A stretch of DNA of 64,000 bases, from the NCBI GenBank assembly GCA_963717505.1, contig OY970342.1, positions 704,001-768,000 on the forward strand, written 5' to 3'. The notes below the pieces were generated by a model. It saw nothing but the letters and a program-made list of their open reading frames with translations, searched no databases and was not told where the DNA came from. The stretch comes from Candidatus Eiseniibacteriota bacterium. GTDB lineage: Bacteria; Eisenbacteria; RBG-16-71-46. Of the stretch, positions 8,274-56,093 are shown piece by piece (position 1 is the stretch's first letter; each line of letters starts with the position of its first letter). The translations under genes were made by a program, and so were the position numbers.

Positions 8274-8372
8274 CGCAATTTAGGCGCTGCGCGTCCATTC
8301 GCGCTGCGCTATCCTCTTGTCATTCCATTCCAAACTGCGGTTCGCCCGTCTGCCTGCCTGATAGGAGTTCCG

Positions 8373-11042
8373 ATGAGCGCGCTCCCCCGCTGCGCCCTAC
8401 CCGCCGCTCTGGCCACCTTGCTGCAGTTCGCCCCTTCCCGTGCGGTTCCCGCCGAGCAGGCGCCGCCGCGCCTGGATCGCACCGCCATCCCCACCGCACA
8501 GTCCGTGGATCTGACGTGTGATCCAGAAAAGCCCGACTACACGGGAACGGCGCGCATCACGCTCGACGTGAAGCAACCCACCGACGTCCTGCGTTTCCAC
8601 GCGCGCGCGTTGACGATCGACAGTGCCACGCTCGAAGGTCCTCGTGGCACGCTCAAGGCCTCTGCGATCGAGCCGCTCGAGCCCGAACAGGTGCGTCTGC
8701 GCTTCCCGGCCACGGTCGCACCCGGCACGTACACGTTGACGCTCGCCTTCCACAACGCCTACAACACGCGGTCGATCTCGCTCTACAAGGTGTCGACTGG
8801 TGGGCACGCGTACCTTTTCACTCAATTTGAAGACACCGAGGCGCGCGAGGCGTTCCCCTGCTGGGACGAGCCGGAGTTCAAGATCCCCTGGCGCATGACG
8901 CTCCGGGTGCCCGCCACGGACCTGGCGGTGAGCAACACGCCCATCGCCAGCGAGACGCGTTCGGGAGCGAACAAGATCGTGGTGTTCGAGCCGACGCGCC
9001 CGCTGCCCTCCTACCTCATCGCGATTGCGGTCGGACCCTTCGAGACGGTGCCGATCCCCGCGATGTCGGTGCCGGGCCGCGTGGTCACGGTGCAGGGCGC
9101 GGGCCCATTGGCGGCCGACGCAGTGAAGGCCGCGGCACCGCTGCTCAAGTCACTCGAGCGCTACTTTGGCCGGCCCTATCCCTACACGAAGCTCGACCTG
9201 ATCGCCGCTCCCGAATTCTTGTACGGCGCCATGGAAAACGCCGGCGCCATCGTGTTTGCCGACCGCGCGCTGCTGATCGACCCGGCGATCGCGAGCCCCC
9301 AGCAGCGCACGCGTGTGTTCAGCGTCATGGCGCACGAAATGGCGCACATGTGGTTCGGCGACCTGGTCACCATGAAATGGTGGGACGACCTGTGGCTCAA
9401 CGAGTCGTTCGCCACGTGGATGGCGGACAAGGCGATGGACGACGTCTACCCTCGCGATCGGGAAGGCGTGACAGCGCTATTCAGCGTCCAGCGGGCATTC
9501 ACCACTGATTCCCGGCTCTCGACGCGCGCCATGCGCGGCAAGATCGAGGGCGCCACCACGCTGCAAGAGACCGCCAACGAGCTGACGTACAACAAGGGTG
9601 GCGCCGTGCTCACCATGTTCGAGGGCTGGGTGGGGCCCGACAAGTTCCGCGCCGGCGTGCTCGACTACTTGAAGGCGCACGAGTGGGCAAACGCGGAAGG
9701 CCGCGACCTGTGGCTCGCGATCGGCAAGCAATCGGGTGAGGACATCGACGCCGCCATGGCGAGCTTCCTGGACCAGGCCGGTGTTCCGCTGGTCACGTTG
9801 GAGCCGGTGGGCGGCGGGCGCGTGAAGCTCTCGCAGCGCCGATTCCTTACGGTGGGCGAAGCTCCGGCGGATACTCAGGTGTGGCGGATCCCCGTGATCC
9901 TGCGCTATCCGTCGGGCCGCGACCTGCGCACGCTGCGTGTATGGCTCTCCCAGCGCGACACCATCGCGGATCTGGGCGTTGCCGCCTTGCCGGCCTGGAT
10001 CATGCCCAACGCCGGAGCGAGCGGCTACTACCGCTGGCGCGTTCCCGAGGCGATGCGGGACTCACTGCTCCGCGCGGCGCGTGGTTCGCTCAACGAGCGA
10101 GAACGGATCGATGTGATCTGCAACCTCACGGCCCAGCTTCGGGCGGGCGCCGAGCGTGGCGACCGCTACCTGCAGATGATCGCCACGATGGCCGACGATC
10201 CCGACCCCGACGTCCTGCGCGCGGGCATGGGGTCGTTCGACGACACGCGAATCGCTCTCACCACACCGCGCTCCTCCACTGCCCTCGCCGCCTACGTGCG
10301 CACCACGTTCGACCCGGCTCTTCATCGCCTGGGGCTCGTGCCGAGCCCCGACGAACTGCCCGGTGCCTCGGTCGCGCGCGCTCAGTTGTTGCGCCTGCTC
10401 GCCGACGCCGGGAACAGCACGCCGGTGCTCGCATACGCGGAAAGCTTGAGCCAGGTCTATCGGAATTCACCGACTTCCGTAGCGCCGTCGTTGGTCGACT
10501 GTTCGATCGTGCTGGGGGCGCGCCGGGGGAACTCGGCGATGTTCGAGGACTACCGCCAGCGCTTCGAGACCACCACCGTGCCGAATGACCGCACGCTCTA
10601 CCTGGTTGGAATGGGCTCGTTCCGGGACCCGACGATTCGGGCGTCTGCGCTCGAGTACACCCTGAAGGGCCCGCTCCGCCCGCATGAGACCCAGGTCATT
10701 CCTGCCTCGATGGGCGAGACCGGCCTCACGTCGTACGGGGGTCGCGGCGGCGGCGGTGAATTCTCGGATGAAATGGCCAAGTGGACGCTCGACCATTGGG
10801 ACGAGCTGGTGGCGAAAATGCCGCCGAACTTCGCCACGCGGAATCTGCAAATGACCGGGGGTTGTTCCCGGGAACGCGTCGCCGGGCTCAAGCAGTTTTT
10901 CGCGGATCCCAGGCGCGACACCCCGGGAATCCGGGCCACGCTGCGGCGCATGGCCGATGCGATGGAGGAGTGCTCGAGCCTGCACGATCGCGAAGCAGGT
11001 CGGGTCGAGCAGTGGCTGAATTCCGCGGCAACCGCCCCGTAA
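8373..11042 (+). CDS. M1 family aminopeptidase with ERAP1-like C-terminal domain
   Basis: GAMEN motif, HEMAH-x18-E zinc motif, YNKG; signal peptide. Confidence 0.95.
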   Translation: MSALPRCALPAALATLLQFAPSRAVPAEQAPPRLDRTAIPTAQSVDLTCDPEKPDYTGTARITLDVKQPTDVLRFHARALTIDSATLEGPRGTLKASAIEPLEPEQVRLRFPATVAPGTYTLTLAFHNAYNTRSISLYKVSTGGHAYLFTQFEDTEAREAFPCWDEPEFKIPWRMTLRVPATDLAVSNTPIASETRSGANKIVVFEPTRPLPSYLIAIAVGPFETVPIPAMSVPGRVVTVQGAGPLAADAVKAAAPLLKSLERYFGRPYPYTKLDLIAAPEFLYGAMENAGAIVFADRALLIDPAIASPQQRTRVFSVMAHEMAHMWFGDLVTMKWWDDLWLNESFATWMADKAMDDVYPRDREGVTALFSVQRAFTTDSRLSTRAMRGKIEGATTLQETANELTYNKGGAVLTMFEGWVGPDKFRAGVLDYLKAHEWANAEGRDLWLAIGKQSGEDIDAAMASFLDQAGVPLVTLEPVGGGRVKLSQRRFLTVGEAPADTQVWRIPVILRYPSGRDLRTLRVWLSQRDTIADLGVAALPAWIMPNAGASGYYRWRVPEAMRDSLLRAARGSLNERERIDVICNLTAQLRAGAERGDRYLQMIATMADDPDPDVLRAGMGSFDDTRIALTTPRSSTALAAYVRTTFDPALHRLGLVPSPDELPGASVARAQLLRLLADAGNSTPVLAYAESLSQVYRNSPTSVAPSLVDCSIVLGARRGNSAMFEDYRQRFETTTVPNDRTLYLVGMGSFRDPTIRASALEYTLKGPLRPHETQVIPASMGETGLTSYGGRGGGGEFSDEMAKWTLDHWDELVAKMPPNFATRNLQMTGGCSRERVAGLKQFFADPRRDTPGIRATLRRMADAMEECSSLHDREAGRVEQWLNSAATAP

Positions 11043-36197: not shown

Positions 36198-39100
36198 TTA
36201 CTCCGCGACGATCTGAACCAATGCCGGCGGGGAGATCCCTTGTTGTTGGGCCGCCTTCGCCACCTTGACCGGGACGATTTTGGCGAATGCCTCGTGAAAG
36301 CGCCAGCGCTTCCACTCGCCCTCGAGCCGGACGGTCACATGCTCGCCCTCGATCCGAATCGGGAGCCCGCGGCGGAGGGCCTCGGCGGCGACGAACGGGC
36401 CCAGGTCCCGCGTCCACTCCTCGGGGGTGATCGCCGACAGGACATTGCCCGCGTATTGCGCGGGATCGAGCCGAACCAGGGGATCGAACACGAACACGCG
36501 GCCGGCCGCCGCCCCGGACATGAAGAACTTTCCGGAATAGGGCCGCGGCTTGAGCGAAAGCTCGCCGCGGCCGTCGGGCTTGCGCAGGCCCATGACCACG
36601 TGCAGCGAGTTGTCGCCGCCCGCCATCAGGTACTCGAACGCGTACTCGTTGGGCGTGCCGAAGTGGATCGACTTGAAGCCGGGCGCCGGCGTGCGCCCGT
36701 CCTCGAGCAGGACCTTGTTCTGCCCGGCCACTGCGAACCGCGAGCCCGAATCCCAGACGTTGATCGTTCCGCCGTGCGCGGCGTACATGCAGGTGTTGAG
36801 CGAGTCCTGGAGCACGAACAGGTAGCCGGAATCGGCCTTGAAGCCGAGATGGCTCTGACCCTGGCCGAACACATAGACGCGCGCGCCTTCGAGCAGGGCG
36901 CCGATGAAGTCGCCGAATTCGCGGCCGTACAGTTCGAGCGTGACCCCGCGCGCGGCCGTGCCGTCGGGCTGTGCCAGGTTGGTGCCGACGTAGCGCGGAC
37001 CGCCGATGAATCCGTACCCGACGATATTGCGCCACCCCAGTCGCACGGCCTCCGACGTGATGCGCGACGCCGAGTCGAGCCAGAACGACTCGCTGCGAAA
37101 GCCGGCATAGTCGACGACCAGGACATCGCGCAGCGGATCGCGGGGCGCGGCCAGGTCGTCTCGGGTTTCGAGCGTGAGCCGCGCCCACCGGCCGGTCGGC
37201 GACGGCGCCGCCAACGCTTCGTGAATCGGCGCGACCTGATCGAGCAGCCGCACGACGCCGCCTTCAGGCGAGCGGTCGCCGGCACGACCGCCGTCGGTCA
37301 GGTACTCCATGCTCGACAGCGACTTGCCACCGAGGTCGGTGAGCGCGAGCCGCGTGCGGAGTGTGGCGAGCACGCGCAGGACCAACGCCGTGCTCGTGTC
37401 GGAACCTTGCGCCCACTCCGGCAGCGCGTGCTCGACCAGATAGCGGTAGTCCTCGAAATTCAGCGTGCGCTGGCGATCGAGGGTACCGATCACCAGATCG
37501 CGCGCAGCACCGGTCAGCTCCTGATCGGGCCCCCAGGGCCGCGACGCCGGTGCCGCACCCGATTCGACCGCACGCACCTCGGCGGTCATACCCTCGAGCC
37601 AGCGCAGGACCAGGCTCTTCCACTCCGCCGACGCGCGGCCGACCGCCTGCTCGAGCACCACTTCGAAATCCACCTTGGCGCCGCCGCGCTCGACCTCGAT
37701 CGGCTCCCCGAACCGGTTGGTCAGGTCCATGCCCTGGGATCCCGGAGCCGTGAACGCCTCGAACACGCCGCCGAAGTCGCGTCGCTTGGGCGTGCCGCCG
37801 GGACGCATGTTGAAGCGCAGGTCGTGGCCACCGTCGTGGAGCACACCCTGGGCGTGCAGCGTGCGCAGCATGGCGTCGGCGATCTTGGCTTCGCTGCCGT
37901 TGGCCACGGCGTGGACTCCGCCCGGCGTGGTGTCGCGACTGACCACGATCTCGTGCGGGCGCAGGAACTTGATGTCCATGTTCTCGCGGAAGCCGACGAC
38001 CCGGAGCGGCCCGGACGCGGTCCAGCGCCGGCGCGACTCGACGATCGTGAACTTGTACGGGCCGGTCGGCGTCAGCTGGACGTAGTTGGTCATCAGCAGC
38101 GTGAACTTGCGCCGTCGTTCATCGTCCATGTTGGCCAGATCGAAGCCGGTGATCGGCGAAATGATCTGGCTCGCCTCTTCGGTCGACAGACCCAGCACGC
38201 GCCGCGTGAAGTCCACGAGATAGGCGGCGTACTCGGTGTCGGTCAGCGCCTTGCGCTCGTACACCGAGTCGCCGTGGTAGTCGGCGTGGCCCTCGCCCAT
38301 CGTCGGGTCGGCGTGGACGTAGCCGAACTCCATGAGGAACGGGGCGGTCGAGTCGACGGCCACCTGCTCGCCGTTGTGCATGAGCAGGACGTTGTACGCC
38401 TTGAACGGATGGGCGCCCGCGGGATTCCCGCGGCCTTCGGCGTCGATCGCCGGCGAGTTGGTCGGATAGCGGTGGTGCATACCCCAGACGTGCGCGTGGA
38501 GCGCCGGCGTGCGGGACGTTCGCCCTTTGAGCGTGACCGGCAGGCCGCCGGGCGCACCCGGGTATGCGATCCAGAAGCGGTCGAAGTCGAAGTACTCGGG
38601 AATCGTGTGCGTCCAGCCCGAGATCTTGATCGCGCCGAGATCCTCGCCCATCGAGACCACGAAGCCCCGGCGTTTGGCGGCGTACTTGCCCGCCGGTGGA
38701 TGCGATCCCGCCGGCGCGTGGGTCCGGTAGTAGCGCGAGTCCAGCAGGTGCGCGAGTGCGGTGAAGTACTCCTCGCGCACGTCAGCGACGAACCGATCCA
38801 GGCGCTCGAGATTGGCGTCCCCGGGGGGCGCCGGCCGGTCCGGATGGTCGAGCGCATGGGCGAGCGCGAAGTCGGAGAGATCCCCGTAGAGCGTCCGACG
38901 CTGGAGCCAGTGCTCGCTCGCGATCAATTGCCGGCCGTAACGCTGGAGCACCTCGAGCCGAAGCTCGACGAACAGTAGATGGAAGTCGCCCGGGTTCTCG
39001 CGCAGCTCGGCCAGACGCCAGCCGTCGTCCTTCTGGTACTGCGGCCGCACCGGCACCTTGAATTCCGGCAGACGCGCCAGGACCTGATCGAGCGGCAGCT

Positions 39101-42100
39101 CGGCGCCTGCGGCGTCGAAGAACCGGCAACCGGCGAAATGCCCGACCATCTGGCGGATGGTGTCCGCGCGATCGGGTCCGATGGTGTTGACGATCACGCA
39201 GGTCTTCTCGCGCACCGGTTCCGGCGCGAAGCCTGCGAAATCGATGCCGCCGCCGCGGTTGTTGCCGCCATTGAAGCTGAGCCGCGCCGACTCCCAGATC
39301 GCGTGCACGGTCACCGGCTCGGACACCGCCAGCGACCCGACGCGGCACGAATCCCGCTCGACCGTGACCGGGTCCACGGCCGGAGCCGGGCGCGACATCC
39401 GGGCCGGCACGCCGTCGGCGGCCGCGGCGTCGAGCGCACGCAGCGAACCTGCCGGTCCCGCGTGCTTCGGCATCACCAGCAGGTCGGTGCGGCCGCGCAG
39501 TTTGCGAATGTCGTCCAGCAGGCGGTCGGCGTGAACCACCCGGCCCTGCGCGTCGAGCGCGCCGCTCTCACGATTGAACGCGTCGAGCAGCACCGCCAGC
39601 TTGACCAGGTTCATCACCGTCCAATTGCGGAACCGCCGGCGCATCAGATCGCGGTCGTTCTGGATCGTCAGCTCGGGCTTGGTCGTGATGCCGCCGCGCG
39701 GGCAGTCGAGGTGACAATTGCCGCACTGATTGCAGCCGAAGGCCACGGCCTTGCCGATGCTGGCTTCGACCAGCGCGTCGGCGCCGGCGATCAGCACCTT
39801 GATCATGTCCAGCTCGCCGCGCAGCCCGCCCGACGCCAGGAGCCGCGTGCCACCGCCCGCGCCGAACGGAACGCCATTCAGGTCGCGGATCGACTTCAGC
39901 TCGCCGCTGCCGGCCAGGTCGACCTTCTCGCCGACCAGGGCATGATGCGTGTGCAGGATGGTGCGGAAGATGTCGGGCCACCCGACGTGTGAGCTGTCGG
40001 CGTGGTAGTTGCCGGAACCGCCGAGCCCGGAGTCGACCAGCAGGTAGTCGACCACGAAGTTGGACCACATGCCGGCGGCGACGTAGCGCGTGTAGTTGGA
40101 GCCGGTGATCTTGATGCCGCAATGGTTGTGGTAGAGCAGCCACAACCAGACTTCGGCCGGCATGTCCTCGATCGAATAGATGTCGTGCTTGGGATCGGGC
40201 GAGAGCGCGTCGGTGCCGATCGGAATGTTGCGCGCCTTGCTCACCGTGCTGGTGACTTTGGCTCCGGACAGACGCCCGCCCTTGCCCGGCTTGGCGCCCT
40301 GATTGATCTTGATCTCGACGTCGCGCACGCGGCGCAAGTCGGCGGCGTGCATGCCGAAGTGTCCGCTCGCCGCCTGCATGCTCTCCCAGGCCATCGCTTC
40401 GGGCGCGAGCCGAATCGGTCCGCCTTCGCCCGACGAGGTCATGGTCAGTCCGGTGTTGCCCTCGATGCGCGCGATCAGGAAATCCTCGGACGCCGCCCCC
40501 AGCGAAATGCTGGCGTGACACACCGGGCCGTGCCAGATGGGCTCTCGGAAGCCGAAGCCGGAGAGCACCAGGCCGCCGCGCGGCTCGCGCCGCAGCGTGA
40601 CCAACCCGTCCTTCGAGGCGCGCGCGACCGTGACCCCGTGCCCGCCGTGCCCGCGCGCCGAAAGTTCCGTCGAGCGCTCGGCGCCCTCGACATCGCGGGC
40701 GATCATCCATAGCGATTCGCCGCCGTTCAGCACGTTTTCGAGCGCATGGCCCGCCGCGATCTGGACTTCAAAACCTCCGGTGCGATCGGCGGTGAAACTC
40801 AGCAGAGCCGGACCGTCGGCGCGGCCCCGCAACTCGACCGTGGCGCCGGAGGCCACGGCTCCCGGCCGCTGGAATCCACGCGGCACCGCCATCGACACGT
40901 AATCGAGCAGCTTGGGATCGCGCGCCAGACGCGCCAGCGACCACTCGAGCGATTCGCGGGACAGCTTGATGCCGATCCCGTCGAGCGACATCGCGCCCAT
41001 GTCGCTGTCGATCAGGAAGTCGCCGGCCTCGGGCATCTGGCCGGCGGCCATGCGGTAGATGACCTCGAGGAAGTCCGCGCTCAGATTGCGATTCGTGTTC
41101 TCCAAATGGAAGTTGGCGTTGTCGTGGGCCAGGATCTTCGCGGCGGCGACCAGCGGCAGATCCGGGCGGCGCTCGCCGAGTAACGACGAGACTTTGAACC
41201 GCTCTCGCATGGCACTCGGCACCGGCTCGGCGGCGATGCGTGCCGCGTTCAACCCGGCGTTCAGGCCTCCGAACTCGGGCGTCGCCAGGGCGTCGACTTC
41301 GCGAATCCAGTCCTCGGTCATGGTGATCGCCATGGTGTTGCCGGAGGTCTTCTGGATGTCGTCGATCCCCATGCACGACAGGAAGTCGAGGATGCTGTGT
41401 TGCCAGCAAGTCAGCGTGTTAACCGCCAGCTCGCGCAGCTCGGGCAGACCGACCCCGCGCAAGGCGGTGCGCGCCACTTCGAGATTCGCGCCGTGGTGAA
41501 CCTCGATCAGCTCGGGCAGGAGCGCGATCTCGGCGACGTGGGTCATGGCCCCGCCGTTGGCGCCAAGCAGGACCGCCTCGTACACCGTGGCCGCCGAAGC
41601 CTGGGTGTCGGTATCGCCACCGGCCGATACCAGCTGGACGCGCGCCCTGAGAAACCGGGCCTTGAGGAACGCGTCGATGCGCGGGATCAGCCGATACGAC
41701 TTCTCGCGCCCCGAGTGAATGTGCAGCATGGCCACACCGTCCAGGCGCGCCGTGGTCTCGAGCGCCGGCCAGAATTCGGGATTCGCCGCGTCGTAACGCA
41801 TGAAGACCGACACCAGGAGTCCGGCATTCCGCTCGATCAGGGCGGCGACGTGGCGGGCGACGTCCTTGCTCCACGCGATCTCGACGATGCGCGACGCGGT
41901 CACCCATTCGCGCAGGGTTGCCGCCGCCTCCCCCGAGCCCGAGCTCAGTGCGTCCACGTGTCGCGGCTCGAGGCGAGGCATGACGTGCGTGGCATTCGGG
42001 CGCAGGGCTGCCGCGTGCTCCACGCAGCGGTCCGCCTCGATCACGACCAGCGAGCGTGTCTGCAGATCCGCCGCCGGGTTCGCGGCGGCGATCGCCTCGA

Positions 42101-42719
42101 GATAACCGCGCTCGAGCGAGATGTCGACCTTGAACGGCAGCGGTCCGACGATCATCGGCATGTCCAGACGAATCGCACGAACCGGAATGCTCGTCCGACC
42201 CTTGGCCGTGCGGAACAGGACCGCCGGATGCCGACGGGCGATGTCCCACGCGGTCGAGAATTCCTCGCGTAGACCGTCGTTCGCGGGGTGGGTGATCGCC
42301 GCGTGCGAGAAGTACGAGCGCCAGAAGCCATGGTGCCAGGCGGCGCCAATCGTCAGCGGCTCGTGACGGTGGCGTTCCTTGAGCACCTTGTCGAGATCGA
42401 ACGCGGTGATCTCGAGCTGCGGGATCTCGCGCGAGACCCGGGAGAAGTGCGAAAGGAAGAGCCGGCCGCGCCGGCCGCGCCCCAGACGCCAGAACGAGGC
42501 TTCGTCGACCCCGGCTCGCTCGAGCAGGAACGACAGCATGCGCCGCCCGCGATCGCGATCGCGCACGGCCGCGCTGTCAGGATCGACCACCAGCGTGAGC
42601 AGGTCCTCCCACATCGCGATCTGCCGGTGGAACGAACCCGGACGATCCGCCGGATCGGTCGACGGTGCCGGCCCGTGCGACGGTGCTCCGGGCGCGGGGC
42701 GTTCGAGGGTCGCGCTCAT
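36198..42719 (-). CDS. gltB: Glutamate synthase-like polyprotein, 2173 aa, with rearranged domain order (degenerate barrel, FMN, GATase-II, GXGXG)
   Basis: FMN domain (SSGEGG, QAASGHFG, EIKINQGAKPGKGG, SPDPKHDIYSIED, ASGGLR, GRTDLL); GATase-II (ERDSC, HHRYPTN, AHPF, HNGE, TDTE); C-terminal GXGXG-type region. ATGA overlap with the upstream gene and GGAG RBS. Confidence 0.85.
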   Translation of the reverse strand: MSATLERPAPGAPSHGPAPSTDPADRPGSFHRQIAMWEDLLTLVVDPDSAAVRDRDRGRRMLSFLLERAGVDEASFWRLGRGRRGRLFLSHFSRVSREIPQLEITAFDLDKVLKERHRHEPLTIGAAWHHGFWRSYFSHAAITHPANDGLREEFSTAWDIARRHPAVLFRTAKGRTSIPVRAIRLDMPMIVGPLPFKVDISLERGYLEAIAAANPAADLQTRSLVVIEADRCVEHAAALRPNATHVMPRLEPRHVDALSSGSGEAAATLREWVTASRIVEIAWSKDVARHVAALIERNAGLLVSVFMRYDAANPEFWPALETTARLDGVAMLHIHSGREKSYRLIPRIDAFLKARFLRARVQLVSAGGDTDTQASAATVYEAVLLGANGGAMTHVAEIALLPELIEVHHGANLEVARTALRGVGLPELRELAVNTLTCWQHSILDFLSCMGIDDIQKTSGNTMAITMTEDWIREVDALATPEFGGLNAGLNAARIAAEPVPSAMRERFKVSSLLGERRPDLPLVAAAKILAHDNANFHLENTNRNLSADFLEVIYRMAAGQMPEAGDFLIDSDMGAMSLDGIGIKLSRESLEWSLARLARDPKLLDYVSMAVPRGFQRPGAVASGATVELRGRADGPALLSFTADRTGGFEVQIAAGHALENVLNGGESLWMIARDVEGAERSTELSARGHGGHGVTVARASKDGLVTLRREPRGGLVLSGFGFREPIWHGPVCHASISLGAASEDFLIARIEGNTGLTMTSSGEGGPIRLAPEAMAWESMQAASGHFGMHAADLRRVRDVEIKINQGAKPGKGGRLSGAKVTSTVSKARNIPIGTDALSPDPKHDIYSIEDMPAEVWLWLLYHNHCGIKITGSNYTRYVAAGMWSNFVVDYLLVDSGLGGSGNYHADSSHVGWPDIFRTILHTHHALVGEKVDLAGSGELKSIRDLNGVPFGAGGGTRLLASGGLRGELDMIKVLIAGADALVEASIGKAVAFGCNQCGNCHLDCPRGGITTKPELTIQNDRDLMRRRFRNWTVMNLVKLAVLLDAFNRESGALDAQGRVVHADRLLDDIRKLRGRTDLLVMPKHAGPAGSLRALDAAAADGVPARMSRPAPAVDPVTVERDSCRVGSLAVSEPVTVHAIWESARLSFNGGNNRGGGIDFAGFAPEPVREKTCVIVNTIGPDRADTIRQMVGHFAGCRFFDAAGAELPLDQVLARLPEFKVPVRPQYQKDDGWRLAELRENPGDFHLLFVELRLEVLQRYGRQLIASEHWLQRRTLYGDLSDFALAHALDHPDRPAPPGDANLERLDRFVADVREEYFTALAHLLDSRYYRTHAPAGSHPPAGKYAAKRRGFVVSMGEDLGAIKISGWTHTIPEYFDFDRFWIAYPGAPGGLPVTLKGRTSRTPALHAHVWGMHHRYPTNSPAIDAEGRGNPAGAHPFKAYNVLLMHNGEQVAVDSTAPFLMEFGYVHADPTMGEGHADYHGDSVYERKALTDTEYAAYLVDFTRRVLGLSTEEASQIISPITGFDLANMDDERRRKFTLLMTNYVQLTPTGPYKFTIVESRRRWTASGPLRVVGFRENMDIKFLRPHEIVVSRDTTPGGVHAVANGSEAKIADAMLRTLHAQGVLHDGGHDLRFNMRPGGTPKRRDFGGVFEAFTAPGSQGMDLTNRFGEPIEVERGGAKVDFEVVLEQAVGRASAEWKSLVLRWLEGMTAEVRAVESGAAPASRPWGPDQELTGAARDLVIGTLDRQRTLNFEDYRYLVEHALPEWAQGSDTSTALVLRVLATLRTRLALTDLGGKSLSSMEYLTDGGRAGDRSPEGGVVRLLDQVAPIHEALAAPSPTGRWARLTLETRDDLAAPRDPLRDVLVVDYAGFRSESFWLDSASRITSEAVRLGWRNIVGYGFIGGPRYVGTNLAQPDGTAARGVTLELYGREFGDFIGALLEGARVYVFGQGQSHLGFKADSGYLFVLQDSLNTCMYAAHGGTINVWDSGSRFAVAGQNKVLLEDGRTPAPGFKSIHFGTPNEYAFEYLMAGGDNSLHVVMGLRKPDGRGELSLKPRPYSGKFFMSGAAAGRVFVFDPLVRLDPAQYAGNVLSAITPEEWTRDLGPFVAAEALRRGLPIRIEGEHVTVRLEGEWKRWRFHEAFAKIVPVKVAKAAQQQGISPPALVQIVAE

Positions 42720-45406
42720 CGCCGCTCCGCCGTCTCGAACGAATCGAGCGCCACGAACCAGGCCGGTGTCGGCGCTTCCATGACGCGCAGCGTCCGCCCG
42801 CCGTTCTGGTGGTTGTTCGGGCAAACCTCGACGCACGACCCGCAGCCAATGCACCGTTCCTGAGCGGTCTGGATCCACCGAGGATCCGCGCCCTCGAACT
42901 CGCGATTGGCGCTGGTGGGACAGACGGCGACACAAGCGCCGCAGTGGATGCAGGTGTCGGCCGGGCCGGCGTCGTTCTCGGAGCGCAAGACCAGGAAGCG
43001 CGGCACCCCCGGGAGTGCTGCCGGACTCCGTTTGATGTAGCCGCCCGGGCGCACGCCCAGGAAGTCGCGCGTGTATCCGGCCGAGCCCCGCACTGCCGCG
43101 ACCACGGCCGCGTGCCGGTTGCGGTCGTACGGACGCACGCGATTCGAAGCTGCTTGCATCTGGTCGTACATCGGCAGATGCGGAATGCCCGCCTGGCAGA
43201 CTTGCTCGCAATTGCCGCAGCGCATGCACAGGTCGAGCAGCGTGCTGCCGGTCGCCGGCACCGCGACGCCGCCGCGCATGGCTTCGCCGATGTGCGTGAG
43301 CATCTGGGGCAGGCGGATCTTCGATTCGTGGAAGATCGGGCAGACTGTGTTGCACTCGCCGCAGTTGACGCAGTGCAGCGCTCGATCCTCGGGCGTCTGG
43401 GCCGGTGATCCGGCCGGTGCGCCCGGGGCGATCGACAACAGCAGTGACTTCCCGCCACCTCCGGCCATCGGCGCCGGCGCGCGGAAGTCGGCGCCAACTA
43501 CCGCGGGTCCGCCACGCCCGCGGGCCGGGCCCGGGAGCACGCTCATTAGTCCGCGCACCGATTTCACCAGCCCGGAGAGCGCGGACTGAGCGTAGATCGC
43601 GCGCAGCAAGGAAACGCCGGGCGAGAAGGTCGATGCGACGACGGCGCCCAACGGCCCTTTGAGGCTCATGTCGACCAGCACGCCGCGATTCACGATGGCG
43701 TGGGGGTCGAGCGATCGCTTCGCCGCGCGGATCAATGCCGCGGGTCCGCGCCCGACCTTGGCGTCGAGCCACGCAGCCTGCCAGCGACCGAGCACGTACG
43801 GCTTGCCCTGGTGATGGTGCATCGCGAGGTCGACCAGCGTCGGCGCGATCATCAGGTCGGCGCCAAATGCACCCGAGCGATGGTCGGTGAGGTAGCCGGC
43901 GATGACCAGCGTCGATCCGTCGTGGACGTAGTAGACCTCGGCGTCCACCTCGCGTCCGACGTTGCGCGCGAGTTGGGCGGCGCGCGGAAGAAAACGCGGC
44001 ACCTCCGCCGCCGGCATCAGGATCTCCGCTGCGAGCAAACCGGGGCCGAGCCGCTTGGTCTGCATCGGCTTGAATCGCTCGGCGGCGAACCGAACGCTCT
44101 CTTCGCCGAGCAGCGCCGGCTGCCCTGGGCATGTCGGCAGCGCCGCGCCGAACGCCCGCGCCGCGGCTTGGTCCATGAAGTCGACGAACAAGTAAGCGCC
44201 GGCGTGATCGAGATCCGGGGCGGTCGCAGGCCCCAGCTCGCGCGGGCCGGTGATCGAGCGCCACGGCAACGACGCATCGCCCGAGAGAGCACCCAGGTGC
44301 TGGCGCCAGGTGCGCGCGTCCTCGTCGGCCCATACCGCACGCACGTGGTGCATGTGCGATCCGCTGAAGAACTTGATGTTGGCCGGTTTCTCCCCGGGCA
44401 ATTGGGTCACCCACTCCGCGGCGGCGAGGGCGTCTTGCTCACGCGCGAACGACAGGAGGAATGGATAGAGCGCCGGCCGCGGCTCGATGCGTACGGTGAG
44501 TCTCAGCAGCACGCCGTAGATGCCTTCACTGCCCGCGAGATCGTCGAGCGTCATGGGCTCGCAGCCTCGGTCGCGGAACCACGCGGCGACTTCGTGCCCG
44601 GCGAGAGTCCGGTGCGAGTGGCCTTCGACTACGTCGAATCGGCCGTCGTCGTGGAAGCGAACCTGGTCGCCCGAAGGCAGCAGCAGGTCAGCAGCGCGAA
44701 CGCTGTCCAGCGCGCGCCCACGCCCGTAGGCGTTGAGCCCGACACCGCCGGTCAGGAACCAGCCCGCGAGCGTGCCCCCCAGGTTCGAGGGATAGACGCC
44801 GAGCGCGAATCCCTGCTCGCCGAGTTGCTTGTGGATCGTGCGCATGCGCGCGCCGGCTCCGATGATGCAAACGCCAGCGGACGGATTGACCTCGATCCCG
44901 TCGAGACGCGACAGGTCGAGCGTCAGTCCTCCGTCGCTCGGCACCGAGCCGCCCATCGCGGTCGAAGCCGCTCCGCGCAGGGTGACCGGCACGCCCAGGT
45001 TGCGCGCCCAGCGCAGTGCCGCCTGGGTCTCGGGCGTGGTCACCGGCTGGAAGATCAGGTCCGGGACCGCGCGCGTCAGGCGTCGCGTGAACAGTCCCCC
45101 GAGGTAGACGTTCTGATCGCGGTCCGCCTCGCCACGCAGGAGTCCGTCAGTGACGATCCGCTCGCGCAGGGTTCTTGCTGATCCCGCGGCATCGGGCAGG
45201 TCGGCCAGGGCCTCGTGCAGCAGGCGCGCCAGCTCGCGCGTGCGCAGCGGCTCGGTGCGGTCGGCGTACGCCCGACCCTCGTCGAAGAAGAAGTTGAGGT
45301 CGGGGATCGAAGCGCGGACGACGGGGGCGCGCTGCTCGGGCGGAAGCGCGGCAAACGCCTCCGGCGACTGCCCTAAATGTCGATCGAGGAACGAGGCTTC
45401 GGACAT
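42716..45406 (-). CDS. FAD-binding (PCMH/VAO-type) oxidoreductase fused to four [4Fe-4S] motifs
   Basis: PDLIFQP, PVTLRGAASTAMGG, GTLAGW, GSEGIYG, KRSLDPHAIVN; CVNCGECNTVCP, CMRCGNCEQVC, CIHCGACVAVCP, CIGCGSCVEVCP. Start uncertain (45406 or 45478). Confidence 0.9.
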   Translation of the reverse strand: MSEASFLDRHLGQSPEAFAALPPEQRAPVVRASIPDLNFFFDEGRAYADRTEPLRTRELARLLHEALADLPDAAGSARTLRERIVTDGLLRGEADRDQNVYLGGLFTRRLTRAVPDLIFQPVTTPETQAALRWARNLGVPVTLRGAASTAMGGSVPSDGGLTLDLSRLDGIEVNPSAGVCIIGAGARMRTIHKQLGEQGFALGVYPSNLGGTLAGWFLTGGVGLNAYGRGRALDSVRAADLLLPSGDQVRFHDDGRFDVVEGHSHRTLAGHEVAAWFRDRGCEPMTLDDLAGSEGIYGVLLRLTVRIEPRPALYPFLLSFAREQDALAAAEWVTQLPGEKPANIKFFSGSHMHHVRAVWADEDARTWRQHLGALSGDASLPWRSITGPRELGPATAPDLDHAGAYLFVDFMDQAAARAFGAALPTCPGQPALLGEESVRFAAERFKPMQTKRLGPGLLAAEILMPAAEVPRFLPRAAQLARNVGREVDAEVYYVHDGSTLVIAGYLTDHRSGAFGADLMIAPTLVDLAMHHHQGKPYVLGRWQAAWLDAKVGRGPAALIRAAKRSLDPHAIVNRGVLVDMSLKGPLGAVVASTFSPGVSLLRAIYAQSALSGLVKSVRGLMSVLPGPARGRGGPAVVGADFRAPAPMAGGGGKSLLLSIAPGAPAGSPAQTPEDRALHCVNCGECNTVCPIFHESKIRLPQMLTHIGEAMRGGVAVPATGSTLLDLCMRCGNCEQVCQAGIPHLPMYDQMQAASNRVRPYDRNRHAAVVAAVRGSAGYTRDFLGVRPGGYIKRSPAALPGVPRFLVLRSENDAGPADTCIHCGACVAVCPTSANREFEGADPRWIQTAQERCIGCGSCVEVCPNNHQNGGRTLRVMEAPTPAWFVALDSFETAERR

Positions 45407-45480
45407 CCCGCGCGTGGGGAATGCGTGCAGCGCTCGGCGGCGTCGGGCCCCGCTCGCGCTGCCCGCGGACCATGGCACTG

Positions 45481-45504
45481 CCCGCGTAAAGCGGGACTAT
45501 AGCA
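45481..45504 (-). promoter_or_regulatory. Putative extended -10 promoter with adjacent short palindrome, upstream of the FAD/GltB-like operon
   Basis: Minus strand reads TGCTATAGT (45504-45496) then CCCGC-TTTAC-GCGGG (45495-45481). Confidence 0.5.
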
Positions 45505-45548
45505 GAGGGTTCGGCAGCCGGTCACGGCGGCCAAGCGAGGACAGCGGC

Positions 45549-48472: not shown

Positions 48473-51250
48473 TCACCTCATGATCGCGACGCTCTTTTGA
48501 ACCACGACGTCACCCTGTGACAACCGGACGACGAATACTCCAGGCTTCCAGTCCGTGCCGGCTTGGATTCTCGCCGTGTGTTGTCCGATCGTCGTGCCGG
48601 TCGCCCTTCTGTCTCGACGACGCCCCTGAACATCGAACACCTCGATGACTCCAGGTCCTGCTTTCGGCAGGACGTAGTTCAGGGTCGCCCAACCACCGGT
48701 CATTGGATTCGGCTGGATGGACTCGATTGACAGTCGAATCAAGGCCACCTCGACGAACACCTCGGTCGTCCAGCGGTCTACTCCGTCATCGTCGGCATAC
48801 CGAAGCCGGAAAGCGTGGACACCGGGATGGAGATTCCCCTCCTCGAAGTGGATGAACCCAGTTCCATTCACCGTCGGTGCGCCCACAGTTCGCCAGTTGT
48901 CGTCGATCAGCCTCTCTACATTGCCAGAACTCATGCCACCAGCACCGGCATACCAGGTGATCCTCGCTATTCCGTCTTCGCCAGTCGCTTCGACCAGCGA
49001 AATCGCAACGGGCGTCGCTCGGTCAGTCCGATTCATCAACAAGAAGACGGTGCCTCTGGTGGTCGCCACGGCGACGTCCGGCCAAGAGTCGCGATCCGAG
49101 TCCACGATGATGGGTCTCGAGATCAGGCCGCCGAACGCGAAGAAGCGCCTGTCGATCGTGAACCCACCAGCGCCATTCCCCACGTAGACTGCGAGGAAGC
49201 TCGACTGGTATTGCTCTTCCCAACTTGGCGAACCGCCATGCGTCGCGACGGCATCTCTATCTCCGTCTCCATCCAGATCGGCCACCGCGATGTGGTGGGC
49301 ATTGGGCATTCCCGGTGAGTTGATCTCGGCGGAAAACGACCCGTCACCCGCTCCCCGCATCACGCTCAGTCCCTGTCCCGTACCGCCCACAACATCCAAT
49401 GCACCGTCGTTGTCGGCATCCGCCAAGGTCATTGCCCAGAAGCTGTTCGCAATCGGGCTCACGATTGGAGCGCCAAAGGTTCCGTCCCCGAGCGATCGCT
49501 TCACGTAGAGCTGCCGGCTGATGAAGCAAATGCAGTAGCCAGCATGGTCGTAGCCGCAGCATTGCCCCCGCACGTTGATGACCAGGTCATCGAGCCCATC
49601 CTGGTCGACGTCGCCGGCAGCAGCAGCAACGACGCGTTGCTCGTGCAAGACCGGGGTTTCAAATGTTCCGTCCCCTATTCCCCTGGCGGTGAATGCTCGC
49701 TGCGGCCCATGGAGTAGCAAGTCGGGGTGGTCGTCGTTGTCGAAGCGAGCAATTTCGACCGCTTCGACGTTGGCGTGAATCGGAAACGACGGCAGCCTGA
49801 TGAATCCACCCACCACACCGCGAAGTACGCTGACGGAACCGACGCCGTACGGAATCTGATTCAACACGACCAGATCCCCGATTCCGTCCCCGTCGAGGTC
49901 GCCGGCTGCCAGCTCCACCGAGGCTCCATCGGTTGGGTAGTGGACACCCGGTGCATACCCGCCCTCGGGAAGCGCACCGAGAACCGTGGCCGTGCTCACG
50001 ACGCGATTCGCGGTAGCCAGGTCGATGAGTTTGTCGCCGTCCAGATCAGCCGCGGCCACTGCCCGCGGGTCACTTCCACTGCCCACTGGGTACTCGTTTC
50101 GCCTGCCGAAGCCTCCTGAACCGTCACCCGGAAGTACAGCGAGCGTTCCGGTCGTCGACCCGATGGTGAGGAGATCCGGATTCCCGTCCCCCGTCACCTC
50201 GGATATGGCAACCGCCAGGGGCTGCGAAGGCACATAGTGGTCCGAGGGAGGCTCGACCATACCGAATCCTCGGCCCTTGAAGACCAGGATCCGATCCGAA
50301 AAATAAGCTGCGATCGCCACGTCGCCATAGCCGTCGCCATTGACGTCCTCGATATCCACTGAGAACGGATAGGTTGGCGAAGGCAGCGTCATCACTTGGG
50401 CAAAGTTTCCGTCTCCTACACCCCGCAGCGTGGTCATCGTATGGTCGCGCTGATTCGCGGTCGCTATGTCTGGATAGGGATCCCCATCCAGATCGCCAAT
50501 GGCAAAGGCAAGCACCCCCGGCCCAGCCGGAGACACCCGCGCCGGGAGAAGTGTGCCGTCTCCTCTCCCGAGCAGGACCGCAACACCGTCTCTGGCAAGA
50601 CTGGCCGTGAGCACGTCGACATTCCCATCTCCATTCACGTCACCCGCCGCCATGCTGAACGCGCCGGGGGCCGTGGCGAACTTGGACAGAGAGCCGAACC
50701 CACCGTCACCGGCACCGAGCAGCACTGAGACGCTGTCAGGTCCGTAGTTGACGGCGACCAGGTCGCGATTGCCGTCGTTGTTGAGGTCGACGATCTCGAC
50801 GAAGTGTGGGCTGGCACCGCATTCGAGAAGAACCTGAGGTTGGAACGCGTTGCCAGGCATCCCCAGGAAAAGCGACAGAGTCCCGGAACCGTGGTTCGCG
50901 ACCACGATGTCGCCAACGCCGTCGTTGTTGACGTCGCCGGCCGCTGCGCCAACTGGATTCGCCCCGACATTCATCTGCGCGACGATCTGGAACCCGCCGT
51001 CGGCGTCCCCTGAGAGGACCGTTACCGAGCCGGGTGCATTGACGACAATCGCGTCGTCGTAACCGTCCCCGTTGAGATCATGTAGGCGGAAGGACCTCGG
51101 GATATTTCCCGCTCGGTAGAGGTCGTACATGCCCTCGAGGTTGGGCGTCGCCGCGGCGATCGTCGCAAGTGCGGCCAGGGCTGTGCCGATGAGAGCGCAT
51201 GGCAACCAGCGGGCGACCGAAACGGGATCGAAACCTGGGCGAGAAGTCAT
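48473..51250 (-). CDS. Secreted FG-GAP/VCBS repeat protein with C-terminal T9SS/FlgD-like domain
   Basis: More than 10 D(L/V)(N/D)xDGxxD repeats; signal peptide; C-terminal PNP...FDVQGRR...PGVFVVRL. Confidence 0.9.
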   Translation of the reverse strand: MTSRPGFDPVSVARWLPCALIGTALAALATIAAATPNLEGMYDLYRAGNIPRSFRLHDLNGDGYDDAIVVNAPGSVTVLSGDADGGFQIVAQMNVGANPVGAAAGDVNNDGVGDIVVANHGSGTLSLFLGMPGNAFQPQVLLECGASPHFVEIVDLNNDGNRDLVAVNYGPDSVSVLLGAGDGGFGSLSKFATAPGAFSMAAGDVNGDGNVDVLTASLARDGVAVLLGRGDGTLLPARVSPAGPGVLAFAIGDLDGDPYPDIATANQRDHTMTTLRGVGDGNFAQVMTLPSPTYPFSVDIEDVNGDGYGDVAIAAYFSDRILVFKGRGFGMVEPPSDHYVPSQPLAVAISEVTGDGNPDLLTIGSTTGTLAVLPGDGSGGFGRRNEYPVGSGSDPRAVAAADLDGDKLIDLATANRVVSTATVLGALPEGGYAPGVHYPTDGASVELAAGDLDGDGIGDLVVLNQIPYGVGSVSVLRGVVGGFIRLPSFPIHANVEAVEIARFDNDDHPDLLLHGPQRAFTARGIGDGTFETPVLHEQRVVAAAAGDVDQDGLDDLVINVRGQCCGYDHAGYCICFISRQLYVKRSLGDGTFGAPIVSPIANSFWAMTLADADNDGALDVVGGTGQGLSVMRGAGDGSFSAEINSPGMPNAHHIAVADLDGDGDRDAVATHGGSPSWEEQYQSSFLAVYVGNGAGGFTIDRRFFAFGGLISRPIIVDSDRDSWPDVAVATTRGTVFLLMNRTDRATPVAISLVEATGEDGIARITWYAGAGGMSSGNVERLIDDNWRTVGAPTVNGTGFIHFEEGNLHPGVHAFRLRYADDDGVDRWTTEVFVEVALIRLSIESIQPNPMTGGWATLNYVLPKAGPGVIEVFDVQGRRRDRRATGTTIGQHTARIQAGTDWKPGVFVVRLSQGDVVVQKSVAIMR

Positions 51251-53391: not shown

Positions 53392-56093
53392 CTACCGCCT
53401 CGCCCTCACCTTCTCCGCCAACCGATTCGCCCAACCGATCGAAACCGCGATCTCGCGACGCTCGGCCACGCCCTTGGGTGGACGACTGAACAGGAATCGA
53501 TCGCTCACCGGATCGTAGTCGTAGTCGCGGAATGAAGTCTCGGTCGGCGAGGGCGGCACCTCGAACAGCTGCTCGGGTTGACCGGGGGAAAGTTCGTCGT
53601 TTCGCACTGCGATCGGCACGCGCACGAGACTCTCACCCGTGACGAAGAACAGTTCCCGGCTGTCGCGCCCCCAGCGGACACCGCCGCCACCGCCGGTCGA
53701 TACCTGCCAGCTTCCCCCTCCCGCCAGCGGCCGGATGCAGATCTCCTCGCGTCGGGTCTTATTCGTTACGTAGGCGATCCAGCGGCCGTCGGGCGACACC
53801 ACACCCGCCTGCTCGTAGCCGTCGCCCTCGACCGGGAGCGCACGCGGCGGCTCGTCGCCGTTCACCGAGGCCAGGTGGATCTGGCCGGTGCGGTGGCCGT
53901 AGTCGCTGAAGACTACTGCCTTGCCGTCCGGCGTGACGTCCGTGACTTGCAGCGGATTGTGCGCTCGATAGACTTCTTGCGTCCCGCCGGCGCCGTCCAG
54001 ACGACGGACGACGACAGCCTCCGTCCCTGCGATGTTTGTTGGGTAGGCAATCCGAGTCTCCCCGAGCAGCCATATGCCCGCACCCGACTTGTTCTCGTGC
54101 GTCAGTCGGTTCATCGAGCCCGAGCGAAGATCGGCCAACCAGAGGTCGGCCGCACCGCCCCCGGGCCCGGCCGCCACCAGGGCCCTCGTGCCGTCGGCCG
54201 AGAGTCTCATTTGGAGGTAGGGGCCCGGCGCCACCGGGATCGGCGTCCATCTCCCCGAGCGATCGAGCCACCCGATCTCGCGGGTCTTCTCAGGCTCCCC
54301 ACCCGGGATCCACGCCAGAGTGCCGTCGTCCGCAAGGCTGAAGTAGCACGTTCCACTCGACTCATCACCACTGACATCGGCGAGCACCGGTACTGGATCC
54401 TGCGTGATGCGGGGATTGCGTGGATCGATGGGTACGGCATAGAGGTCACTGCCTCTCGCCAAAACGAGAAATCCCCCCGGCACCCAGGCCGCGCGGCGCG
54501 CACCTTTGAACAAATGACGACGCTCTCCCGTCTTCACCGAGACCGCGTCGATGCTCGCGTCGTCGTAGCCGCCCGGGCTGTCCACGGTCTGGACGGTGAA
54601 CACCACCCATGGCCCGCCATCGAGCGCGCTGGGGAAGCGGTGCGTGCGTTCCCGCTTGGTGGTATCGAGCGTGGTGATCGCGACCGGCGTGCCTCCGGAT
54701 TCGGGGATTCGAAACAGCGGCTCGGTGACTTCGCGCGTGAACACGATCGTGCCATCGTCGAGCCACGTGCCGAGTCTATCCTGTAACGCGTCGGCCAGCG
54801 CCACCGGTGTGCCGCCGCGCACCGACACTTTGTTCATCTTGCGGGTGTCGAAGAATCCGATCCATTCGCCGTCCCGCGAGAAGAAGAGGTTGCGCGCACC
54901 GTCGGCGCCGGCAATCTCGACGTCCTCACGCGTGTCCAGGCGTCGCAGTCGCAGCTTGAGCACGCCGCCCACCCGAACCGTGTACGCGATCGCTCGACCG
55001 TCCGGCGAAATCGCCATCGGGTGGTAGCTGATGTCCTCACCGATCCGCTGCCCGCCCGCGGGCACGACGCTGAGTTCGGTTGCCGTCGGTTGTGCGGGTG
55101 GCCTGCGCCACAGCAGCCCGCCAACCACGGCCAGCGCGACGATTCCGGCCCAGGCGATCGTCCAGAACTTGAGCGCCGGCGAGCGCGGAGCGGTCCCGGG
55201 CGCGGTCTCGGCCACCTCTTCCGCGGGATTCGCCGATAGGTCCTCGAGCGCGACTCGTGCCTCGCCGATCGCCTGCAGTCGCCGTCGAGGATCCTTGACC
55301 ACGCATCGCTCGAGCAGATGGCGCCAGCGCGAAGACAGCCCAGAGGGCAGCGCCGACCAGTCCGGCTCGTCGCGCATCACCGCCGCCATGGTCTCGGAGA
55401 TGGTCTCACCGGCGAACGCGCGCCGGCCGGTGAGCATCTCGTAGAGCACAGCGCCAAACGAGAAGATGTCGGACCTGCGTTCGGCCTCACGCCCGCGCGC
55501 CTGCTCGGGCGACATGTAGGCGGCGGTGCCCAGAATGACACCCGCCTGGGTCATCCGTTGCGTGAGCGTCGGGGACTGGGTGAGGTCCGCGCTCGAACCG
55601 GCGCCTTCGGCTGCGAGCGCACGCGCCAGATCCGAAAGTCGAGCACTTTGACCGTGCCGTCGGGCCTCAGCTTGATGTTCGCAGGTTTGAGATCACGGTG
55701 AATGATGCCGCGGTCGTGGGCGTACTCGAGCGCCTCGGCGAGTTGCCGCCCGATGCGCAGGCACTCGTCGACCTCGATCGGGCCGCTCGCAATTCGCTCG
55801 GCAAGGGTGGGCCCCTCGACCAGCTCCATCACCAGGGCGGTGGCCCCCCCGGCATCCTCGACGCCGTAGATCGCGGCGATGCCCGAGTGACTGAGTGCCG
55901 CGAGCAACCGGGCCTCGCGCTCGAAGCGCGCCAGCCGATCGACGTCGCCGGACAGAAGATCGGGCAGCACCTTGATCGCGACGTCACGCCCGAGCCGCGT
56001 GTCGCGCGCGCGATAGACCTCGCCCATGCCGCCGGCACCGAGCGGCGACAGAATCTCGTAGGGGCCGAGGCGGGTACCGGGACCGAGGCTCAT
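53392..56093 (-). pseudogene. Ser/Thr protein kinase with TolB-like beta-propeller; +2 frameshift at the DFG motif near 55630-55637 (probably a sequencing error)
   Basis: GAGGMGEVY, VAIKVL, HRDLKPAN in one frame; GTAAYMSPEQ onward in another. GACTTTCGGATCTG is GACTTCGGTCTG (DFGL) plus 2 nt; total length is 3n+2. Confidence 0.85.

Follow-up and report, generated by a model that had tools for sequence, protein, structure and literature searches.

A rearranged glutamate-synthase-like protein and its candidate four-cluster flavoprotein partner in Candidatus Eisenbacteria

The 64,000-nucleotide stretch of Candidatus Eiseniibacteriota DNA analysed here (the window; G000:C1:704001-768000 of a 4.16-Mb single-contig genome) carries on its minus strand two overlapping genes that together represent a so far uncharacterised kind of enzyme, whose carriers are for the most part soil bacteria without glutamine synthetase (GS). 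Gene A (42716..45406) encodes the probable partner subunit, an 896-residue iron-sulfur flavoprotein that binds flavin adenine dinucleotide (FAD), and gene B (36198..42719) encodes a 2173-residue protein resembling glutamate synthase, fused and with its domains in another order. The known electron sources of glutamate synthases (GltS) are free ferredoxin and NAD(P)H, the latter acting through a GltD-type subunit or domain. We conclude that A is very probably the dedicated redox partner of B, in the place otherwise taken by GltD, because synteny, co-occurrence and gene fusion agree on the pairing, and we consider it on balance probable that A and B constitute an unconventional glutamate-synthase-type iron-sulfur flavoenzyme that carries out forward, glutamine-dependent glutamate synthesis. 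If so, the pair would add a further wiring of glutamate synthase, via a dedicated four-cluster flavoprotein of the VAO/PCMH type and a rearranged, fused large subunit. Full-text searches, judged from titles and abstract openings, returned no paper describing this architecture.

The two genes are coupled at the level of the nucleotide sequence, across genomes and, in distant relatives, within single polypeptides. The reading frame of A spans 42716..45478 on the minus strand, with an ATG at 45406 that gives the 896-residue product and a TGA stop at 42716-42718, while B starts with an ATG at 42719-42717 and its frame extends to 36198. Stop and start are interlocked in an ATGA at 42716..42719, just as an earlier note drawn up from the DNA letters had described, and third-position G+C is high in both frames, as in real genes, in a window of 65-70% G+C. 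We compared 45 related loci from at least three phyla, mostly metagenome-assembled genomes (MAGs) of Candidatus Eisenbacteria with others from Planctomycetota, Thermoleophilia and Krumholzibacteriia, and found B to come next after A, in the same orientation, in 43, the remaining two loci ending within A; in at least 17 of the 43, the start codon lies 3 nt before the A stop, which amounts to the same 4-nt overlap. Both proteins are highly conserved, with identities of 51-75% for B across phyla and of 42-66% for full-length, single-piece matches of A. Among 151 sampled genomes belonging to the window's phylum, 26 carry B. Of those 26, 25 also have A, which was found in no genome among the 125 without B; the sole B genome without A is 82% complete and has B at a contig end. 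Co-occurrence across MAGs had been set beforehand as a check on the pairing, which these counts and the 43/45 synteny uphold.

Furthermore, querying all 1.84 billion representatives with A retrieved distant homologs (28-33% identity) in which the A-type module is joined to glutamate synthase domains. A single chain of 2526 residues (P0269) combines FAD_binding_4, FAD-oxidase_C, two ferredoxin diclusters, Glu_synthase (E 6.7e-75) and GXGXG, and its C-terminal parts can be aligned to the amidotransferase and beta-helix regions of B; P0386 (2508 residues) and P0343 (1662 residues) are fusions resembling it, and in P0288, P0304, P0322 and P0326 the A-type module is joined to a partial GltS barrel. 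Alignment-based complex prediction with residues 700-1124 of B and 665-896 of A gave scores of 0.18 and 0.11, short of the 0.32 mark, which we count neither for nor against an interaction.

The earlier note had placed A in the position of GltD, having seen no gltD in the window. The window is indeed devoid of one, as the sole Fer4_20 match of the genome falls outside it (G000:C1:598454-598765), but that match belongs to a 442-residue GltD-like protein with Fer4_20 and Pyr_redox_2 domains, encoded 105 kb from the window at G000:C1:597488-598816. Its existence leaves room for a scheme in which A is a mere neighbour and B takes its electrons from this remote protein or from free ferredoxin, which we judge extremely unlikely. 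The GltD-like gene adjoins, directly downstream and on the same strand, a gene for a 441-residue class III aminotransferase (G000:C1:597488-600161; L052 5489-8162), and its distribution is independent of B: Fer4_20 is found in 125 of the 151 sampled genomes, in 56 of the 59 of the window's family, and throughout genera without any glutamate-synthase domain (11/11 and 9/9), and it was not found in two sampled genomes that carry B. These counts include one unpublished genome (G015) with Fer4_20 and GS and no B. The GltD-like gene is therefore not specifically tied to B, and since Fer4_20 is near-universal even where glutamate synthase is lacking, the GltD-like/aminotransferase pair probably has another role. 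A and B, by contrast, are translationally coupled, strictly co-occurring and fused in relatives, so that the placement of A where GltD would be expected gains from all three lines of evidence, with the correction that a GltD-like gene does exist elsewhere in the genome.

Gene A encodes a modular, putative electron-transfer protein. Residues 115-251 (44654..45064) correspond to a PCMH-type FAD-binding domain (FAD_binding_4, E 1.5e-24) that aligns with the flavoprotein LctD and with mouse LDHD, and residues 319-575 (43682..44452) to a FAD-oxidase_C-like cap domain, identified both by its fold and by a Pfam match that lies just below the cut-off (E 4.4e-4; 20.5 versus 21.2 bits). Two 2x[4Fe-4S] modules follow: a first dicluster at residues 676-741 (43184..43381; Fer4_8, E 1.4e-16; C679/682/685/689 and C727/730/733/737) and a second ferredoxin domain at residues 817-865 (42812..42958; Fer4 families, E about 1e-15; C819/822/825/829 and C852/855/858/862), after which comes a conserved C-terminal tail. 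Across 32 aligned family members, the 16 cysteines of these four CxxCxxCxxxC motifs do not vary, save C685, which is nearly invariant. The Pfam matches of A include no Rossmann or other NAD(P)-binding family and none of the Fer4_20 and Pyr_redox families, so that its architecture is not that of GltD; the earlier note's account of the domain content, two ferredoxin diclusters and missing NAD(P)H Rossmann motif included, is thus confirmed at the level of protein families. Pfam likewise finds no CCG domain (PF02754) in A, the second ferredoxin dicluster occupying that place, which sets the protein apart from the fused GlcD-GlcF and YdiJ-type FAD-FeS-CCG dehydrogenases with their C-terminal CCG domains after Fer4_8; one homolog, P0360, does carry CCG but has a different architecture. 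The family is common in soil metagenomes; we recovered 273 homologs, the best 120 of the 273 being 55-100% identical to A and of the same architecture; among the matches listed, database names are 'FAD-binding protein', 'glycolate oxidase' or similar.

An AlphaFold2 (AF2) model of A has a mean predicted local distance difference test score (pLDDT) of 82.6 and a predicted template modelling score (pTM) of 0.84, and is confident over residues 1-640 and poor over residues 784-880, where the second ferredoxin domain lies. As modelled, A combines a PCMH-type FAD domain with a FAD-oxidase_C cap and is nearest in fold to D-lactate dehydrogenase: mouse LDHD (8jdp) superimposes on residues 55-578 with a VIA Z of 26.1 (431 residues aligned, root-mean-square deviation (rmsd) 2.7), followed by LctD (Z 24.8) and D-2-hydroxyglutarate dehydrogenase (Z 24.3), and Foldseek gives TM values of 0.81-0.83, normalised to the target, for D-lactate and D-2-hydroxyglutarate dehydrogenases. 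Taken together, the D-lactate/D-2-hydroxyacid dehydrogenases (mouse LDHD, 8JDx; LctD of Ldh-EtfAB, 7QH2; human D2HGDH, 6LPN) share the fold of residues 55-581 over about 430 residues (Z 24-26, rmsd 2.7-3.0), from which A differs by a sequence identity of 15-19%, by the replacement of the GEHG stretch, by its four added [4Fe-4S] clusters and by the lack of a CCG domain.

Such kinship could mean that the FAD of A oxidises a D-2-hydroxyacid, be it D-2-hydroxyglutarate, D-lactate or glycolate, and that the released electrons, along with 2-oxoglutarate in the case of 2-hydroxyglutarate, drive B. By our own estimate, made without a dedicated tool, the glutamine-dependent reaction could lie within the thermodynamic reach of a lactate-type couple. 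The structural ranking that favours these dehydrogenases is nevertheless a close one, with cytokinin dehydrogenase and AGPS at Z 23.1 and VAO-type oxidases at about 22, and the cap-domain match to FAD-oxidase_C is, as noted, below threshold. The D-2-hydroxyacid dehydrogenase subfamily is moreover marked by a metal-binding His/His/Glu triad that includes the GEHG stretch, and in A this position reads GKPYVLGRW. The earlier note had already pointed to GKPYVLG in lieu of the EHG motif; consistently, the 'sgehg' of LctD faces a gap in the profile of A, albeit in a weak stretch of the hidden Markov model alignment, and a MAFFT alignment shows G[KR]PY..G.W at this site in A and in 16 of 16 distant relatives (16 of 150 hits listed from a deep search), which also have in common with A the motif W..RF.P...K.LGP.LL. 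The metal site has therefore been lost across the entire A clade and not by chance in this one gene, and it is mainly for this reason that the note's proposal of 2-hydroxyacid oxidation, 2-hydroxyglutarate foremost, finds no support here and that we hold a hydroxyacid-fed enzyme to be decidedly unlikely.

In canonical GltB, according to the review PMC8097209, the domain order is glutaminase, central, synthase and beta-helix, the cluster beside the flavin mononucleotide (FMN) is fed by another subunit that bears FAD and [4Fe-4S] clusters, and open reading frames for individual GltS domains occur in Archaea. Relative to this canonical order, B is rearranged: its own domains follow one another as a barrel-like N-terminal part, an FMN domain (residues 731-1036), an amidotransferase (from residue 1125), a helical insert and a beta-helix. 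Twenty-seven full-length copies of B align with a mean column identity of 67%; a further copy, in locus L004, has an in-frame TAA (9237-9239) at the otherwise invariant Asp159, an assembly error or a pseudogene, and was excluded from the alignments.

B contains an FMN synthase domain (39612..40529), where Glu_synthase (PF01645) matches residues 731-947 with an E of 3.4e-45 as the sole Pfam family in the standard search. Its QGAKPG.GG.L.G.KVT and SP.P.HDIYSIED stretches align with Azospirillum GltS (6s6s/1ea0) and reproduce the 2-oxoglutarate/FMN loop motifs. After this domain comes CNQCGNCHLDCP, which is invariant in the 27 sequences (CxxCxxCxxxCP, residues 996-1007) and whose four-Cys motif, C996-x2-C999-x2-C1002-x3-C1006-P (39702..39734), takes the position of the GltS 3Fe-4S cluster according to the ligand numbering that we presume for GltS; it draws weak Fer4 matches, and the alignment with 1llw stops at chain residue 1144, adjoining the motif. 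Upstream, residues 1-700 (40620..42719) belong to no Pfam family, and neither they nor residues 1101-1600 gave a Pfam match at E values up to 10. Residues of about 280-480 may, judging from weak profile matches, be a degenerate GltS-type barrel resembling the central domain: hhalign comparisons of the N-terminal part with a split-GltS barrel protein and with an FMN domain gave probabilities of 4.8% and 43% (E 2.5e-4), respectively, too weak to call a domain, and the best ESM Atlas score for residues 1-730 (0.82, Glu_synthase clusters) has the strength of a lead.

A full-length profile of B matches the Protein Data Bank in the FMN domain alone, so that the amidotransferase and the beta-helix were detected by fold. 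The AF2 model of residues 1100-2173 (pLDDT 75.5, pTM 0.79) retrieves ferredoxin-dependent glutamate synthase as its top Foldseek match (1ofe_A, E 1.6e-6), with a VIA Z of 17.6 over 569 residues (rmsd 4.5), and the same comparison gives Z values of 12.6 for PurF, 11.4 for GlmS and 8.5 for AsnB. These alignments all begin at model residue 26, that is Cys1125, opposite chain residue 1 or 2, and this identifies Cys1125 (codon at 39345..39347) as the structural equivalent of Cys1, which in class II amidotransferases is the nucleophile at the N-terminus. The predicted class II (Ntn) glutamine amidotransferase domain extends from Cys1125 to about residue 1680 (37680..39347); D1123-S1129 (DSCRVGS) is invariant in the 27 sequences, as are RYPTN, HNGE and TDTE, which we take to be the glutamine-site motifs of the family. 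Pfam GATase_2 does not match B, and residues 1121-1674 match the separate amidotransferase subunit of split GltS in hhalign with a probability of 99.4% (E 5.6e-22). In that homologous split subunit the cysteine sits 14 residues after the likely start, from which we infer that B would be cut, putatively by self-cleavage, just before Cys1125 to free the amino terminus of the nucleophile. Among the 120 shorter proteins listed, mostly high-identity pieces, no clean naturally split form of B was found; P0224, P0203 and P0194, of lower identity, were considered as such and rejected as frameshifted translations.

Between amidotransferase and beta-helix, residues of about 1694-1829 (37233..37640) form a predicted helical insert (AF2 helices at model residues 599-736) with helical-repeat matches only (VIA Z 5-7). 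The chain is predicted to end in a GXGXG-type beta-helix at about residues 1845-2173 (36201..37187), an assignment drawn from the fold and from a Pfam GXGXG match below the cut-off (E 0.025): the GltS structural alignment reaches chain residue 1507, and the region is 30% identical over 310 residues to the GXGXG-bearing end of P0269.

Set beside characterised systems, the pair shares with GltB/GltD of Azospirillum brasilense (1EA0, 2VDC, 6S6S) the FMN substrate-loop motifs, the PurF-type amidotransferase, the C-terminal beta-helix and a further subunit that carries both FAD and [4Fe-4S] clusters, an arrangement described in PMC8097209. It departs from GltB in its barrel-FMN-amidotransferase-helical-beta-helix order, its internal nucleophilic cysteine and its four-Cys motif, and from GltD in that A, a PCMH-type flavoprotein, has four clusters and no NAD(P)H Rossmann domain. 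Ferredoxin-dependent GltS of Synechocystis (1OFD, 1OFE, 1LLW), the best structural match for the C-terminal half of B at an identity of 11-17%, likewise operates without GltD, but it uses free ferredoxin as the donor, whereas here the ferredoxin-like domains are built into the dedicated flavoprotein A. The same order recurs in the split, 'archaeal type' GltS that we located in two genomes of the same phylum (L057, G083:C1:1465070-1468990; L058, G107:C111:11242-15177), where a partial GltS-type barrel protein is followed by a ferredoxin-FMN protein of 598-818 residues and an amidotransferase with a weak GATase_6 match. In that system the FMN protein has its own ferredoxin dicluster and the amidotransferase is separate, whereas B has all parts fused; no A-type gene was found in either of the two genomes.

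These features suggest a working scheme in which A and B would form a complex acting on glutamine and 2-oxoglutarate, with electrons flowing from A to B towards glutamate synthesis. The FAD of the PCMH/VAO-type domain of A would exchange two electrons with an external partner, and the chain of four [4Fe-4S] clusters would hand them on singly to the cluster and FMN of B, the four-Cys cluster being expected to adjoin the FMN. The class II amidotransferase domain of B would free ammonia from glutamine, and the FMN synthase domain would join it to 2-oxoglutarate and reduce the imine to glutamate. Forward glutamate synthesis is the simplest function to assign, because the synthase and glutaminase sites are conserved and because a GS gene lies within some of the operons. 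B might instead carry out related chemistry, such as amine or amide exchange on glutamate and 2-oxoglutarate, or reductively aminate another 2-oxoacid, or use another amide donor, with A setting or resetting the redox state. The subunits of N-methylglutamate synthase, for instance, resemble GltB domains, the domain order, helical insert and 700-residue N-terminal part of B are unlike those of every characterised GltS, and the A-B pair persists both without GS and alongside another GltS. We nonetheless think such a departure unlikely, given that the synthase-site motifs of B closely match those of GltS, that the glutamine-binding motifs of the class II amidotransferase are invariant, and that the gene inserted in the operon encodes a true GlnN-type GS.

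That insertion ties the A-B pair to nitrogen metabolism: in 6 of the 45 loci, the two genes are separated by one for a GlnN-type glutamine synthetase (GSIII; GSIII_N, E 6e-68) that has the same orientation. In the B tree the window's own copy is sister to that of one such operon (L027), and four GSIII operons fall within one clade of eight rows; three gains or losses are needed to explain the distribution of GSIII operons, a result equalled in 81 of 500 shuffles. Locus L006 has a different gene (8028-8948) in its A-B gap, encoding not a GSIII but a 306-residue ClpP-like SDH-type serine protease (PF01972, E 2.5e-15).

B is the sole gene with a Glu_synthase domain in the 4.16-Mb genome, and profile searches of the same 4.16 Mb found no GATase_2 or GXGXG elsewhere. 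Neither the GS catalytic domain nor the operon-borne GSIII protein has a match in the contig, which contains no N runs; the genome does encode glutamate dehydrogenase, and its class I amidotransferase domains number five or six. Across the 151 sampled genomes, B and GS occur together in seven, B without a detected GS in 19, GS without a detected B in 120, and neither in five. Of the 19 B genomes without a detected GS, five have a completeness of 96-100%. Among the seven genomes with both, five hold the GSIII inside the operon by coordinates. Canonical GltB (GATase_2) gave two weak matches in the whole sample, and most GS-bearing genomes of the family lack any glutamate-synthase domain. Because the genomes are related, this cross-table overstates their independence, and we attach no statistical test to it.

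The complementary distribution invites the idea that the reaction is reversed in GS-less Eisenbacteria, glutamate being oxidised at the FMN, electrons leaving via A to an acceptor of higher potential, and the ammonia being either freed or captured as glutamine without ATP. The high completeness of several genomes with B and no GS lends itself to this idea, as do the class I amidotransferase domains that the window's genome keeps and that need glutamine, and enzymes of the VAO/PCMH type frequently act as oxidases or dehydrogenases, handing electrons to acceptors. We rate it as very unlikely all the same: to our knowledge no class II amidotransferase runs backwards, GS is present in five of five B genomes from other phyla, the GSIII in the operon better fits a pairing of GS with glutamate synthase (GS-GOGAT), glutamine may simply be imported, and the sampled genomes are, as stated, related. 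The stricter version, in which A-B would replace GS outright in these bacteria, has as its sole support the complementary occurrence of B and GS within one phylum, and we give it an even slimmer chance; here, glutamate would be oxidised at the FMN, the tunnel ammonia would amidate a second glutamate at Cys1125 in an ATP-independent manner, and the electrons would drain via the four clusters and FAD of A to a higher-potential acceptor. Two broader generalisations were considered and rejected. Absence of GS does not hold as a rule for A-B genomes, those five from Planctomycetota, Thermoleophilia and one further lineage all having the enzyme, and A-B is not always the sole GltS, since another Glu_synthase gene is present in three of the same five genomes.

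Several observations weigh against forward glutamate synthesis by the A-B pair. On the side of B, residues 1-700 fall outside any Pfam family, the nucleophilic cysteine is internal as encoded, 1124 residues from the N-terminus, and the amidotransferase loop with the highest conservation (model residues 318-359) is modelled with a pLDDT below 50. On the side of A, the defining residues of its nearest structural relatives are missing from the donor site. As to metabolic context, 19 of the 26 sampled B genomes, the window's included, are without GS, which leaves no obvious source of glutamine there for a glutamine-consuming enzyme, and one Thermoleophilia genome with A-B has a canonical-type GltB 3 kb from its GS, so that A-B need not be 'the' glutamate synthase of its host.

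Were the proposed glutamate-synthase-type enzyme to be borne out, its nucleophile would need to be exposed by a mid-chain cut of the 240-kDa B protein. With B in 26 of 151 genomes of the phylum, and most B-bearing Eisenbacteria lacking GS, the pair also raises the question of glutamine supply and nitrogen assimilation in abundant uncultured soil bacteria, and annotation pipelines that seek gltB, gltD and glnA would score such genomes as being without GS-GOGAT.

The A-B pair itself is the conserved unit of the locus, because its neighbours are not conserved across phyla: in the window, B is followed by a DUF748/AsmA-type gene, and A is preceded by genes for a TMEM260-like protein, a rhomboid and an FG-GAP protein, of which the upstream rhomboid alone recurs, in the Eisenbacteria loci among those compared. 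A candidate promoter in the 142-bp gap upstream of A (45496..45525, minus strand), proposed from its match to a sigma-70-like consensus, is the sole such match between positions 35800 and 46000, against a mean of 0.5 in shuffled sequence. Further upstream of the operon, also on the minus strand, the FG-GAP repeat protein (48473-51250) is 925 residues long, and a 720-residue protein (53392-55554) combines a partial Ser/Thr kinase domain with PD40 repeats.

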